Positions 21,296 through 40,838 are shown, counted from the first letter of the stretch. The stretch is 64,000 bases of DNA from Escherichia phage UPEC03 (MW250785); one strand, 5' to 3'. The notes: generated by a model not told the origin, from the sequence alone. Translations and numbers: made by a program.

Positions 21296-22231
21296 TCAAA
21301 AGTCACTTAGTTTTTCATACATACGGGTAAGTTTGCATTCCATGAAGTATTTCTCCATTTTTGCTTTGTTCCCGATTTTTGGAGCATTGTACGCTTCTTC
21401 GATTGCCGTTGCAACATCTTTCGGAATAAAATCAAAGTCGCGAAGTTCTTCGTTTTCTCTGTAGCGGATCGCCCACTCTTCGGGCATACCCACGGTCGGA
21501 TCGTCCGCTTCCAGCCAGGCTTCGAGTTCAGCAGCCCTGATTTGTGGGGCGCGTTCTCCTTCAACCTTCGTAACAATATAGTCATTTCGCATTTTAATGC
21601 AAGCGATACTATCTTTTTTATCGCCCTTGATGATCTTCATGCGCAAATCGTTACGAGGTGAACCATATTTCGGTGTAACCCATTTCTTTTGGGTTGGCGA
21701 CCACTGACGCACACCCTGATATTTTTGAAGGGCTGCAAAGTCACCATCAGCAGAAACGATCAGGACACGTTTACCTTAGGATACCGCTTTACGCGTCACC
21801 ACACCGATCACGTCATCGGCTTCTGCGAAGTCAACACGGATACCTTTGTACGGTAAATTAGCACGGATTTCATCGTATGTCGGGTGAAGGAAACCATTCA
21901 GGCGATCCCAGTCCCAATCCGATGCTTCTTGTTCCATTTTTCGTTTCTTTTTGTAGTACCAGGCTTTACTTCTGCGCCAATACTTGTTATCATCAAAGGC
22001 TAGAACAATTTCAGGGTACTCACCTTTGAATTTAACCACATTGTGACGAATGGTGTCAAGCACTATGTGACGAACAATTTGTTGGTTGATGTCATTCTGG
22101 TCTTTCGGCTTGAAGTTGTTCATCAACGTTGCTACCGAAAGGTTTGAAATATCTATACACATCACATCAACAGGATCATCGTCATTGCTCATTAAGCTGT
22201 TCAGGTTGAACATACTTGCAAATGAAGACAT
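21296..22231 (-). pseudogene. rnh: RNase H (5'-3' exonuclease, rnh) reading frame interrupted by a single in-frame TAA at 21776-21778
   Basis: ORF 21776..22276 matches T4 RNase H N-terminal half, ORF 21296..21712 the C-terminal half; both in the same frame, the 63 nt between them translate to GKRVLIVSADGDFAALQKYQGV which aligns to T4 RNase H. Confidence 0.75.
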
Positions 22232-22308
22232 TTCAATACCTCGTTGTTGTTGAATGAAACTGATTATAGTGATCACTTTTTCAAAGTCAATAGATCATTT
22301 CAAAAATC

Positions 22309-22462
22309 TGAGCGAAGCGAAGGACACGAACGTAGTGAGTGTCTATGTACTGAATGTACGTTTTAATATTTTTATATTTTATATATAGAGAAAACAGTAC
22401 ATTTCCGTATACTTTTTAACCAGTTTTAACTATCCGTTTCGCTTCGCTCACGGAAGCGCTTC
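22309..22462. repeat. 13-bp inverted repeat TGAGCGAAGCGAA (22309-22321 / 22438-22450) flanking an AT-rich 115-bp core, plus adjacent 10-bp palindrome GAAGCGCTTC
   Basis: Seen in sequence in the divergent intergenic region between rnh (-) and gene 55 (+). Confidence 0.5.
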
Positions 22463-22500
22463 GCGCTGATTTTATTAAATAATATAGATTGGAAGTAGGT

Positions 22501-22529
22501 TTGAAACACCTGATTCAATCGGCTATAAT
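22501..22529 (+). promoter_or_regulatory. sigma70-type promoter TTGAAA-17-TATAAT upstream of gene 55
   Basis: Consensus-like -35/-10 with 17-nt spacer, ~25 nt upstream of GGAG SD and ATG 22555. Confidence 0.6.
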
Positions 22530-22554
22530 GAATGTATTCAATTTGGAGAATATA

Positions 22555-23070
22555 ATGACTACAAAGATTTATGCAGATAATGATAAGCTGTATCCAGTTA
22601 TGTGTAAGTGGAAACAGCAAATCCGTGAAACTGGTGATCGTAAGATGCCGGATGAACTCGGTATTGCGATTATGAACATTGCTCACGGTTTGGCACGTCG
22701 ATACAACTTCAACCGTTATTCCGAAGACTGGAAAATGGATATGATCGATGATGGAATTTCGGCAACGATTTCCGGCCTTCATAACTTTGACGAAACCAAA
22801 TATACAAACGTCTACGGTTACATCAACAAGGCTTGCTGGCAAGCGTTTGTAACTCGTATTCTCTACGAGAAGAAAGAGAACGCGAAGAAATACAAATACT
22901 TCCTGGAACATGTCTATGACAGCGATGATACTGATATGACCACGATAGCCGATGAAACTTTCATTCAGGATATCCATGACAAACTTAATCAGTATGAAGA
23001 GTCCGCGAAAAAACCCAAAGATAAAATCGAGGTTGTGGACGAATCGCCAACATTGGAAATGTTTCTATGA
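22555..23070 (+). CDS. 55: late-promoter sigma factor gp55
   Basis: GLARRYNFNRYSEDWKMDMIDDGI...GLHNFDETKYTNVYGYI...DETFIQDIHDKLNQYEES parallels T4 gp55. Confidence 0.85.
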   Translation: MTTKIYADNDKLYPVMCKWKQQIRETGDRKMPDELGIAIMNIAHGLARRYNFNRYSEDWKMDMIDDGISATISGLHNFDETKYTNVYGYINKACWQAFVTRILYEKKENAKKYKYFLEHVYDSDDTDMTTIADETFIQDIHDKLNQYEESAKKPKDKIEVVDESPTLEMFL

Positions 23071-24668: not shown

Positions 24669-24942
24669 CCGTTATGATGAATATTTCGGGGCGAACCCCC
24701 GATATTCTCACCTGTTGCGTATGTTGGGAATGAAACACATCATTTCCACATCCAACGAAGCAGGGGAAACCAGCGCAGTTTGTTTGACCATCATGAAGGG
24801 TGCATGGCATTCATCACGAACATGGTCAATATTCATGCTTGATACACTGGACGACGATACTCTATCATATAGTATTGATTCATCAGTTGTTCAAATGATC
24901 ACTGAATTATGTGAACGGATTTTAAATGAAACTAAAAACTAA
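24661..24942 (+). CDS. hypothetical protein
   Basis: ORF between 47 and HNH gene, overlaps both. Confidence 0.35.
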   Translation: MHSRYDEYFGANPRYSHLLRMLGMKHIISTSNEAGETSAVCLTIMKGAWHSSRTWSIFMLDTLDDDTLSYSIDSSVVQMITELCERILNETKN

Positions 24943-25456
24943 ATCACATGGAGGTGGAAACCGAACAATTGATGATGAAATTTCTTCAATAAATGAACTA
25001 CTTCCTATGTTGGATGTTGATGTTGTATTAGGAAAGATATACTGGAAAAACTCACCTCGTAAGAGCGTCCCTGCTGGAACTGAAGCAGGGAGTAAGACAA
25101 AACATGGTTACGTTGCTATCGGGTATAAAAAGACGTATTATAGACGACATCGAATAATATTTTACGTCGCTAATGGTTATCTTCCTCTCGTAGTAGATCA
25201 CAAACACGGTGTTGAATCTGGTGATGGAATAGATAACCTGCAAGACATCACGCAACAACAAAACTCCGTTAAAATGAGAATGAGTAGAAGGAATTCTTCT
25301 GGGTTTAGAGGGGTTTCCTTTCACCAAAAATCAGGAAAATGGCAATCATGTATTGTGTATAATAGAAAAACAATATATCTTGGTTTGTATGAAACACCAG
25401 AACTTGCACATAGTGCATATACAGACAAGCGAAAAGAATTATTTGGTGAAATATGA
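24926..25456 (+). CDS. HNH homing endonuclease with AP2 domain (paralogue B)
   Basis: RRHRIIFYVANGYLPLVVDHKHGVESGDGIDNLQ + AP2-like SGFRGVSF...GLYETPELAHSAY; inserted between genes 47 and 46 with ATGA overlap to 46. Confidence 0.8.
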   Translation: MKLKTKSHGGGNRTIDDEISSINELLPMLDVDVVLGKIYWKNSPRKSVPAGTEAGSKTKHGYVAIGYKKTYYRRHRIIFYVANGYLPLVVDHKHGVESGDGIDNLQDITQQQNSVKMRMSRRNSSGFRGVSFHQKSGKWQSCIVYNRKTIYLGLYETPELAHSAYTDKRKELFGEI

Positions 25457-40524: not shown

Positions 40525-40531
40525 AAATTCC

Positions 40532-40608
40532 GGCCCTTTAGCTTAATTGGTTAGAGCGGGTGACTCATAATCGCGCGGTTGCTGGTTCGAATCCAGCAGG
40601 GGCCACCA
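40532..40608 (+). tRNA. tRNA with CAU anticodon (Met, or Ile if lysidine-modified), encoded CCA
   Basis: Acceptor GGCCCTT/AGGGGCC, T-arm GCTGG-TTCGAAT-CCAGC, anticodon loop CTCATAA; hand-folded. Confidence 0.75.
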
Positions 40609-40613
40609 AATAC

Positions 40614-40689
40614 GCAGGTGTAGTTCAATTGGTAGAATATCTGGTTTCCATCCAGATTGTTGAGGGTTCGAGTCCCTTCACCTGCTCCA
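40614..40689 (+). tRNA. tRNA-Gly (UCC), encoded CCA
   Basis: Acceptor GCAGGTG/CACCTGC, anticodon arm TCTGG-TTTCCAT-CCAGA, T-loop TTCGAGT; hand-folded. Confidence 0.8.
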
Positions 40690-40838
40690 ATTCGGGTGCG
40701 TAGCGCAATGCCGTTAAATGGTTCGGAATATGCAACCTTATCGTATGCGATAGGCTCTGTTGGTATCCGGTAATAGGTTCCCCGGAATGCGGGGTGAAGT
40801 AAAGAAACTTCCAGCCCACAAATTTAAAAGAGAAAAAT

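Follow-up and report, generated by a model that had tools for sequence, protein, structure and literature searches.

The replication origins of phage T4 depend on MotA and share no motif. Two of them, oriF and oriG, need a MotA-dependent middle promoter that reads into an unwinding element, and they start by way of an R-loop. This unwinding element is AT-rich and ca. 50 bp long, there are several origins per genome, and oriE, oriF and oriG are found near strand-switch and skew-shift regions (PMC3016281). Signals of another kind are the mini-hairpins of the GCGNAGC type, which have been reported to be exceptionally stable and are present at G4 ori(-), at the promoters of phage N4 and at RSF1010 ssiA, which is recognised by the RepB' primase (PMC13037366). 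T4-type phages also carry PeSL cassettes, in which a stem-loop is joined to a near-consensus early promoter (PMC4122927). Here we describe a 160-bp dyad-symmetric cis-acting DNA element, located at positions 22308-22467 of a 64,000-nucleotide stretch of Escherichia phage UPEC03 (MW250785; this whole stretch is referred to below as the window), which is one of three paralogous copies. It resembles hairpin promoters, ssi signals and unwinding-element origins, yet it departs from each of them in defining traits, and the function that we propose for it is deduced from sequence. Topic and literal-sequence searches of the literature, as well as existing annotation, gave no description of this Pseudotevenvirus element, of its three-copy family or of its 11-nt hairpin apex in T4-like phages.

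An element in three copies

The element lies in the intergenic spacer between rnh and gene 55 (rnh|55), the parts of which are, in positions of the window:

21296-22231, minus strand: rnh, T4-type RNase H (Pfam RNaseH_C and 5_3_exonuc_N)
22232-22554: rnh|55 intergenic spacer, 323 bp
22263-22290, minus strand: sigma70-type promoter facing rnh, -35 TTGACT at 22290-22285, 16-nt spacer, -10 TATAAT at 22268-22263, 11/12 consensus positions
22308-22322, plus strand: hairpin L1, CT-GA-GC-GAA-GC-GA-AG, GNA loop on the top strand; holds the left arm of a 13-bp inverted repeat
22323-22343, plus strand: hairpin L2, GACAC-GA-AC-GTA-GT-GA-GTGTC, GNA loop on the top strand
22345-22402: AT-rich core with the inner repeat ATGTACTG (22345-22352) and CAGTACAT (22395-22402)
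22354-22359: second direct ATGTAC, in the core
22403-22433: right-hand spacer, TTCCGTATACTTTTTAACCA..., the first 20 nt lineage-conserved in all three copies, the remainder variable
22434-22453, minus strand: hairpin R1, CCGT-GAGCGAAGCGAAA-CGG, GAA loop on the bottom strand; holds the right arm of the 13-bp repeat
22455-22467, minus strand: hairpin R2, AGCGC-GAA-GCGCT, GAA loop on the bottom strand; overlaps a 10-bp palindrome
22501-22529, plus strand: sigma70-type promoter for gene 55, TTGAAA-17-TATAAT, 11/12 consensus positions, preceded by an AT-rich stretch (22468-22500)
22555-23070, plus strand: gene 55, late sigma factor

In database comparisons of the 1.4 kb around the spacer, identity was 99-100% with many Pseudotevenvirus phages of Enterobacter, Cronobacter, Klebsiella and Citrobacter, and 89-91% with RB43, RB16, Lw1, Miller and CfP1. 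Judged by these matches the window is a Pseudotevenvirus, i.e., T4-like, of the RB43/GAP161 group; it maps to ~8.8-73.2 kb of GAP161 (178 kb). The rnh|55 spacer itself is 89-100% identical across ~60 genomes.

The initial annotation had singled out three signals in this spacer, and all of them are present. The 13-bp inverted repeat consists of TGAGCGAAGCGAA (22309-22321) and, after a gap of 116 nt, its exact reverse complement (22438-22450); the 10-bp palindrome GAAGCGCTTC is found at 22453-22462, and the promoter at 22501-22529 is the one listed above. No other perfect 13-nt inverted repeat with a spacer of ≤200 nt occurs in the window, and first-order Markov simulations give 0.33 per 64 kb, so the repeat alone is only weakly significant; it is the conservation, the copy number and the hairpins that make it real. 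The description of this repeat as bracketing AT-rich DNA is misleading, as its arms are parts of separate local hairpins. The spacer had also been called the only long intergenic region. It is indeed the longest protein-free gap of the matching GAP161 annotation, but by a crude cover of open reading frames (ORFs) there are other gaps of 150-314 bp in the window, for example at 40525-40838, presumably a tRNA region. Some GenBank records have “hypothetical proteins” annotated within the rnh|55 spacer, and in the window a 183-aa ORF on the minus strand (22426-22977), antisense to gene 55, reaches into the element. Coding in the spacer is argued against by the insertions and deletions by which lineages differ there.

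To call the centre of the element AT-rich was an understatement. By nearest-neighbour duplex energies the core, at ~22361-22411, ranks as least stable in the window at duplex lengths of 30, 50 and 80 bp, with -25.7 kcal/mol for 30 bp against a window mean of -39.4 (standard deviation 2.9), that is, 4.7 standard deviations below the mean in stability. The same holds for the complete GAP161 genome, where the three element cores rank first to third in instability among 30- and 50-bp duplexes and are also the three windows richest in AT in 178 kb. It is an exceptional unwinding core. It also forms an imperfect AT-rich palindrome with 24-nt arms, and its inner 8-bp repeat has been kept by compensatory change in 4 or 5 lineages: ATGTACTG/CAGTACAT in the window, AACTACAT/ATGTAGTT in RB43 and RB16, ATGTCCACT/AGTGGACAT in Phynn and GTACCCT/AGGGTAC in Mm5, with ATGTCCA/GTGGACAT as a further variant. 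Two other possible properties were discarded. We make no claim of DNA curvature, the T-tracts of the core being 8 bp apart and out of helical phase, and a minus-strand late promoter within the core, TATAAATA, was rejected as a conserved feature because only some copies have it.

The complete GAP161 genome was BLAST-searched with the element, which gave three copies:

Copy 1, GAP161 core ~31.1 kb: rnh|55, orthologue of the window copy
Copy 2, GAP161 100944-101099: between gp3 (minus) and ORF183 (plus)
Copy 3, GAP161 136326-136490: gp24|uvsY

Six genomes were confirmed directly (GAP161, RB43, RB16, Lw1 and two metagenomic ones), and each has three copies in the same orientation at the same loci. 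The rnh|55 and gp24|uvsY spacers are matched in ~60 genomes, most of them with three matching places and a few with fewer. Self-BLAST and a motif search found no second copy inside the 64-kb window, copies 2 and 3 falling outside it. The copies of one genome resemble each other more than they resemble their positional counterparts elsewhere: core identity is on average 82% within a genome versus 72% for positional orthologues between GAP161-type and RB43-type genomes, and GAP161 copy 2 is 90% identical to GAP161 copy 3 versus 64% to RB43 copy 2. Along the same lines, the right-hand spacer reads TTCCGTATAC in every copy of GAP161-type genomes and TTTGGTATG in every copy of the RB43 type. Since likeness within genomes exceeds that of positional orthologues, the copies evolve in concert, and this in turn implies either gene conversion or a shared reader; it does not show the recombination breakpoint that had been suggested for this region. 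The element is more conserved than the flanking intergenic DNA, and its mirror symmetry is retained where both neighbouring genes point the same way, as at copy 3 and in an environmental contig (L255), so that the symmetry is intrinsic to the element.

The suggestion of a divergent regulatory region agrees with the two outward sigma70-type promoters that flank the element. The one facing rnh (22290->22263, TTGACT-16-TATAAT) had been overlooked initially; in CfP1 a promoter is annotated at the equivalent place, and hexamers equivalent to both promoters can be read by eye in Phynn, JC221 and Mm5. Copies 1 and 3 have outward sigma70-like promoters on both sides; at copy 2 such a promoter is present towards ORF183, and towards gp3 there is only a motif that resembles a late promoter. 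The element spacer is left untranscribed by these outward promoters, and in a consensus scan the only promoter-like site inside copy 1 was a weak one at 22386-22413 (9/12 positions). Beside copy 3 a minus-strand promoter (TTGACC-17-TATAAT, GAP161 136295-136323) abuts the left end and reads towards the 3' end of late gene 24, antisense to that gene; its JC221 equivalent is TTGATC-16-TATAAT. In the T4 annotation the oriG and oriE primer RNAs are antisense to late genes 34 and 5. Most flanking promoters (rnh, uvsY, antisense-24 and ORF183) have a GATC site within the -35/-10 spacer or right next to it (in the window at 22293-22296 and 22271-22274), and these phages encode a Dam methylase.

Strand-specific hairpins

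An alignment of 16 element copies defines the order of the parts: L1 (GAGCGAAGCGA); L2 (CACGAACG(A/T)AGTGAGTG); a lineage-specific short repeat; the near-invariant AT-rich core; the inverted partner of the short repeat; a spacer; and R1 and R2, which are reverse complements of L-type sites. The hairpin module reads stem, GA, NC, GNA loop, GN', GA, stem', that is, a C-GNA-G triloop closed by one further pair, a tandem G.A/A.G step and 2-5 Watson-Crick pairs. In 15/15 copies examined, L1 and L2 have the form with the purine loop and the G.A pairs on the top strand, whereas R1 and R2 have it on the bottom strand.

The stems vary while their pairing is kept. The outer stem of L1 covaries, being CT/AG in copy 1, GT/AC in copy 2 and, depending on the genome, AAAC/GTTT or AAAT/ATTT in copy 3, around a loop whose middle base is variable (GAA or GTA). 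The inner pair of L2 is A-T in most genomes and C-G in Phynn (the compensatory form GACAC-GA-CC-GAA-GG-GA-GTGTC), and R1 of copy 2 has the outer stem CCGTC/GACGG around an unchanged apex. R2 of copy 1 shows a compensatory change, AGCGC/GCGCT versus AACGC/GCGTT in RB43, RB16, Phynn and JC221, and in copy 3 of JC221 it has an unrelated stem with the same C-GAA-G apex (ATGAC-C-GAA-G-GTCAT). Read on the plus strand, R2 is a weak terminator-like hairpin followed by GATTTTATT. Among 33 distinct hairpins 85% of the cells are paired versus 64% in shuffles, with 53 double-change cells versus 19, a count that is inflated because the instances had been pre-filtered for pairing. Unbiased support for the stems comes from the flank-pairing test of the 11-mer contexts (see below) and from a census of the whole 178-kb GAP161 genome, in which 8/8 hairpins of this class fall inside the three copies (0-2 in block shuffles). 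The 11-mer GAGCGAAGCGA occurs 6 times in those 178 kb, every time at an element end. Taken together, strand-specific local hairpins are supported by the covariation in these sequences.

As for the inverted repeat of the initial annotation, the element and its local hairpins are kept in relatives, but the long-range pairing of L1 with R1 is not: it shows no covariation, copy 3 of RB16 and Lw1 has it reordered and in Mm5 it is degraded, and for these reasons we consider it a by-product of two opposed copies of one apex. Folding of the element's single strands is far more favourable than that of shuffled controls (z = -5.2 and -5.3), and RNA energy rules favour the GA-containing strand for most hairpins.

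The element and its apex in other phages

Outside the group of close relatives the element is found in the rnh|55 spacer of Phynn and JC221 (both ~71% identical) and of Morganella phage Mm5, and in JC221 also upstream of uvsY. Environmental T4-like contigs (L108, L241, L255, L257-L259 and L190) have a mirror element in a ~560-bp spacer that runs from uvsW/uvsW.1 to gene 55, which is followed by gene 47. In these contigs uvsW/uvsW.1, gene 55 and gene 47 are all on one strand and the element is located one small ORF downstream of uvsW; their gp55 is 33% identical to that of the window (E = 5e-17). In Melnitz and P-SSM2 the spacer that precedes gene 55 is short and without the element, and no GNA hairpins were found in the rnh|55-equivalent spacer of Klebsiella phage KP15 (Slopekvirus, L250 3830-4010). 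This KP15 spacer has 9 GATC in ~170 bp and a perfect 18-bp palindrome, CTACAATGATCATTGTAG, with ends like those of the RB43 inner repeat (CTACA/TGTAG).

The apex of the hairpins is found more widely than the element. Pairs of GAACGAAGTGA placed 6-30 nt apart, for which the chance expectation is <1, gave at least 120 matches. A 16-mer scan of IMG/VR was mostly at chance level (~200 expected by our own estimate) and was used only after filtering. Among 89 distinct contexts of the 11-mer, 24% had ≥3 flanking Watson-Crick pairs, versus ~2% at control positions, and the stems around the apex reach 10 bp with unrelated sequences. The largest group among the matches listed were SSU5-like phage-plasmids, with hairpins upstream of an RNase HI gene:

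L071 7988-8023 and ~79 similar IMG/VR loci; Salmonella phage SSU5 78785-79314: SSU5-like hairpin loci

In these the hairpins stand in tandem (CTGAAC-GAACGAAGTGA-GTGAAG and CCTC-GAACGAAGTGA-GAGG) on the template strand of RNase HI, followed by ~900 bp without long ORFs.

Three other contigs (L055, L089 and L138) are N4-like, with homologues of N4 gp15 and gp16 just downstream (E = 1e-28 to 1e-30). The early regions of these contigs (L055 1400-5367, L089 1122-2310 and L138 11371-13065) contain several intergenic hairpins, on the template strand of small early-region ORFs wherever the neighbouring ORFs permit a call; their apex reads GAGCGAAGCGA, GAACGAAGTGA or GAACGTAGTGA, and all three contigs have hairpins with exactly the 11-nt apex of the window. 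PHROGs annotation assigned the neighbours in L055 and L138 to families of unknown function only, and megablast found no GenBank relative of L055. The hairpins of these three contigs presumably serve as promoters for a virion RNA polymerase, and their tandem G.A pairs have no counterpart in N4 itself. A hairpin scan of N4 recovers its three known early promoters (at 94, 563 and 4552) as C-GNA-G hairpins, all on the template strand, and the hairpins of the window follow this orientation rule, with the purine-loop strand as template for synthesis directed away from the core. It is conceivable, if rather doubtful, that one and the same apex, GA-NC-GNA-GN'-GA, marks where a polymerase or primase enters in the unrelated T4-like phages, N4-like phages and SSU5-like phage-plasmids, and that T4-like phages without MotA start replication, and perhaps rnh, 55 and uvsY transcription, from template-strand hairpins extruded by supercoiling; the common property might be a resistance to single-strand binding proteins (SSBs).

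Two further features of the window lie outside the spacer. Codon 152 of rnh (21776-21778, minus strand) is an in-frame TAA where GAP161 has GAA (Glu152), and this change from glutamate to stop is the sole amino-acid difference between the two rnh genes (311 codons). The 76-bp stretch with the stop was perfectly matched in 0/43 database relatives, which makes the stop private to this sequence; it is either a nonsense allele or a sequencing error. A 176-aa ORF (24926-25456, plus strand), which lies between the gene 47 region and gene 46, looks by sequence inspection alone like an HNH/AP2-type homing endonuclease. GAP161 has no gene annotated at that position, which suggests a mobile insertion that differs among close relatives.

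Origin, promoter control and other readings

The element probably functions as DNA and not within one RNA, since the purine form flips strand, the sites between the diverging promoters are untranscribed and the symmetry persists beside co-oriented genes. Our tentative preference, drawn from sequence and from analogy, is for a candidate structure-based replication origin or primosome entry site in T4-like phages without MotA. An origin was among the functions proposed in the initial annotation, and we also favour it, although not one of the T4 type. The reasons are that the core is the least stable DNA in the genome, that the element is dyad-symmetric and present in three copies, that the cumulative GC skew of GAP161 has its minima at ~31 kb (copy 1) and ~104 kb (~3 kb from copy 2), and that copy 3 abuts the uvsY promoter. 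Negative supercoiling, raised behind two diverging RNA polymerases, would melt the core and the hairpins would extrude, on each side on the strand that templates outward synthesis. The hairpins, expected to withstand melting by SSB, would keep the bubble open and would mark the start for a helicase loader, helicase and primase (homologues of gp59, gp41 and gp61) or for a polymerase, the outcome being two diverging leading strands. In this way melting and extrusion driven by supercoils would take the place of the R-loop route that T4 follows from a MotA promoter.

The element is like the T4 origins in layout, with an AT-rich unwinding element, several sites per genome near strand switches and one of them at uvsY, where T4 has oriF annotated at the 5' end and Pseudotevenvirus has copy 3 at the promoter. 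Unlike oriF and oriG, the element has flanking promoters that point away from the unwinding element, and the MotA box TGCTT is absent from 22277-22554. Neither MotA nor AsiA was detected in GAP161 by tblastn with the T4 proteins (best E ~1-2), so that origin promoters of the T4 type cannot operate here, and as no promoter reads into the core the R-loop route does not apply as such. The three Pseudotevenvirus copies share a motif, whereas the origins of T4 do not. T4 RepEA and RepEB gave nothing significant against GAP161; a RepEA match with E = 0.027, antisense in gene 5, was set aside as probably a by-product of gene 5 conservation. To our knowledge cyanophages lack MotA. RB43 has been reported to be without motA and middle promoters (PMC1524935).

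In the element, as in the N4 virion RNA polymerase promoters, small hairpins with a C-GNA-G triloop are found on the template strand and precede the gene that is transcribed away from them. The N4 hairpins, from the work of Rothman-Denes, reportedly extrude from supercoiled DNA and resist SSB. Those of the element differ in having tandem G.A pairs, in their mirror-image pairing on the two sides of an AT-rich core and in the ordinary sigma70-type promoters that come after them, and no homologue of the virion RNA polymerase was detected in GAP161 or the window (tblastn with N4 gp50 and its mini-vRNAP domain, best E > 1).

The signals of RSF1010 are located on opposite strands, inverted, beside AT-rich DNA, with the hairpin 5' of the presumed start region on the template, and the geometry of hairpin and core in the element is similar to that of G4 ori(-) and RSF1010 ssiA/ssiB. 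Mini-hairpins of the ssi type are found in L1 and R1 (GCGAAGC), in L2 (ACGTAGT) and in L2 of Phynn (CCGAAGG), and all copies examined have them in a mirror arrangement on opposite strands. Here the host molecule is a double-stranded lytic phage genome, and iterons or an initiator gene were not identified for the element; we know of no dedicated primase beyond the T4-type gp61. The stable hairpins of G4 ori(-) and RSF1010 ssiA/ssiB likewise contain mini-hairpins of the GCGNAGC or CCGAAGG type (PMC13037366).

R2 followed by the gene 55 promoter recalls a PeSL cassette, and both are repeated and could mediate recombination. PeSLs are, however, numerous unidirectional terminator-promoter units concentrated in hyperplastic regions (PMC4122927), whereas the element is dyad-symmetric, with strand-specific GNA hairpins and a large AT-rich core, and has only three copies, at the borders of conserved core genes, none of them recurring within the 64-kb window. 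We have therefore not classed it as a PeSL.

Several observations weigh against an origin. The site conserved most widely immediately precedes gene 55 and in every case has a sigma70-like promoter after it, which fits regulation equally well, and in N4-like phages the same apex appears to act as a promoter element. The T4 rnh|34 spacer and the oriG, oriE and oriF regions have neither such hairpins nor sequence similarity to the element. GC skew largely tracks the direction of transcription, and the minimum near copy 2 is located at the gp4|gp53 switch, ~3 kb off. Nearest-neighbour DNA energies of the hairpins are weak (0 to -5 kcal/mol) and without strand asymmetry, so single-hairpin DNA folding is uninformative and the argument from stability relies on published measurements and not on our own calculation. 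Besides, there is no promoter reading into the AT-rich core, a literature search found no published origin mapping for RB43-type phages, and we know of no initiator protein for the element.

The main alternative, possible but less probable in our view, is a hairpin-dependent or supercoil-sensing control of transcription, in which the extruded template-strand hairpins and a bent or meltable core modulate the outward promoters (rnh, 55, uvsY and ORF183) or serve themselves as start signals. This would give T4-like phages without MotA a delayed-early or middle gene class. The absence of MotA is in line with it, as are the outward sigma70-like promoters beside the copies, the hairpins of copy 3 ending 2 nt from the -35 on both sides, and the persistence of the place upstream of gene 55 in distant T4-like phages. 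The purine-loop strand is also always the template of the gene transcribed away, as in the three early promoters of N4 and in its three environmental relatives. However, the genome has no detectable polymerase of the N4 virion type, the distance from hairpin to -35 ranges from 2 to 33 nt, and in copy 3, as in the environmental elements, there is no gene that the left half faces. Control of this kind would also be exerted at three loci only, far fewer than there are replication and recombination genes, and it does not account for the three cores being less stable than any other stretch of the genome. By analogy with T4, where oriF is also the uvsY promoter, an origin and promoter control would not be mutually exclusive.

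The remaining readings are less likely than either of these. A recombination hotspot, which we regard as improbable, would have the palindromic core and the hairpins extrude as cruciforms that are cut by endonuclease VII (gp49), the ends launching recombination-dependent replication and gene conversion among copies. The concerted evolution within genomes would be expected, the core is an imperfect AT-rich palindrome in strands that fold far better than shuffles, and the phage encodes endonuclease VII, gp46/47, UvsX and UvsY. But reciprocal recombination among three repeats in direct orientation would delete essential genes, a cruciform has no need of strand-specific purine loops or tandem G.A pairs, and the 11-nt apex common to unrelated phages is left without explanation.

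Still harder to sustain is the idea that the spacer encodes one or more small non-coding RNAs. R2 of copy 1 is, on the plus strand, a weak terminator with a T-run and shows compensatory change, and the RNA energy rules prefer the GA-containing strand of most hairpins. This terminator-like feature is nevertheless absent from copies 2 and 3, no conserved inward promoter was seen by eye (the single internal site is the 9/12 one mentioned above), and there was no relevant Rfam match, either for the spacer at E up to 10 or for nine related loci at the gathering score. The covariation term of the RNAalifold consensus is unfavourable (+2.1) and, as the favoured strand flips in the middle of the element, a single transcript would hold half of the hairpins in the weak pyrimidine form. 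We have therefore not classed the element as a structured non-coding RNA.

Least probable of all, and rejected as a class assignment, is a non-autonomous mobile element resembling a miniature inverted-repeat transposable element, or a selfish repeat without phage function, for which the terminal inverted repeats, three dispersed copies, patchiness among environmental T4-like phages, absence upstream of gene 55 in Melnitz and P-SSM2 and an apex common to unrelated phage groups would speak, but no target-site duplications are visible at the ends of any copy, the same spacers match across ~60 genomes (with the loci confirmed directly in six), the element is more conserved than the intergenic DNA around it and its structure is maintained by compensatory changes.

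If the candidate origin is taken as the reading to pursue, the element provides a defined and testable sequence for an origin-dependent start of replication in T4-related phages other than T4. Each genome has it in three copies, the loops, tandem G.A pairs, inner repeat and core are sharply delimited and can be mutated, and RB43 and GAP161 can be cultivated. It would extend the biology of GNA mini-hairpins, with N4 promoters, G4 ori(-) and RSF1010 ssiA as precedents, to large lytic double-stranded DNA phages. If instead the regulatory alternative is true, the element would be a clue to how T4-like phages without MotA time the expression of their late sigma factor.

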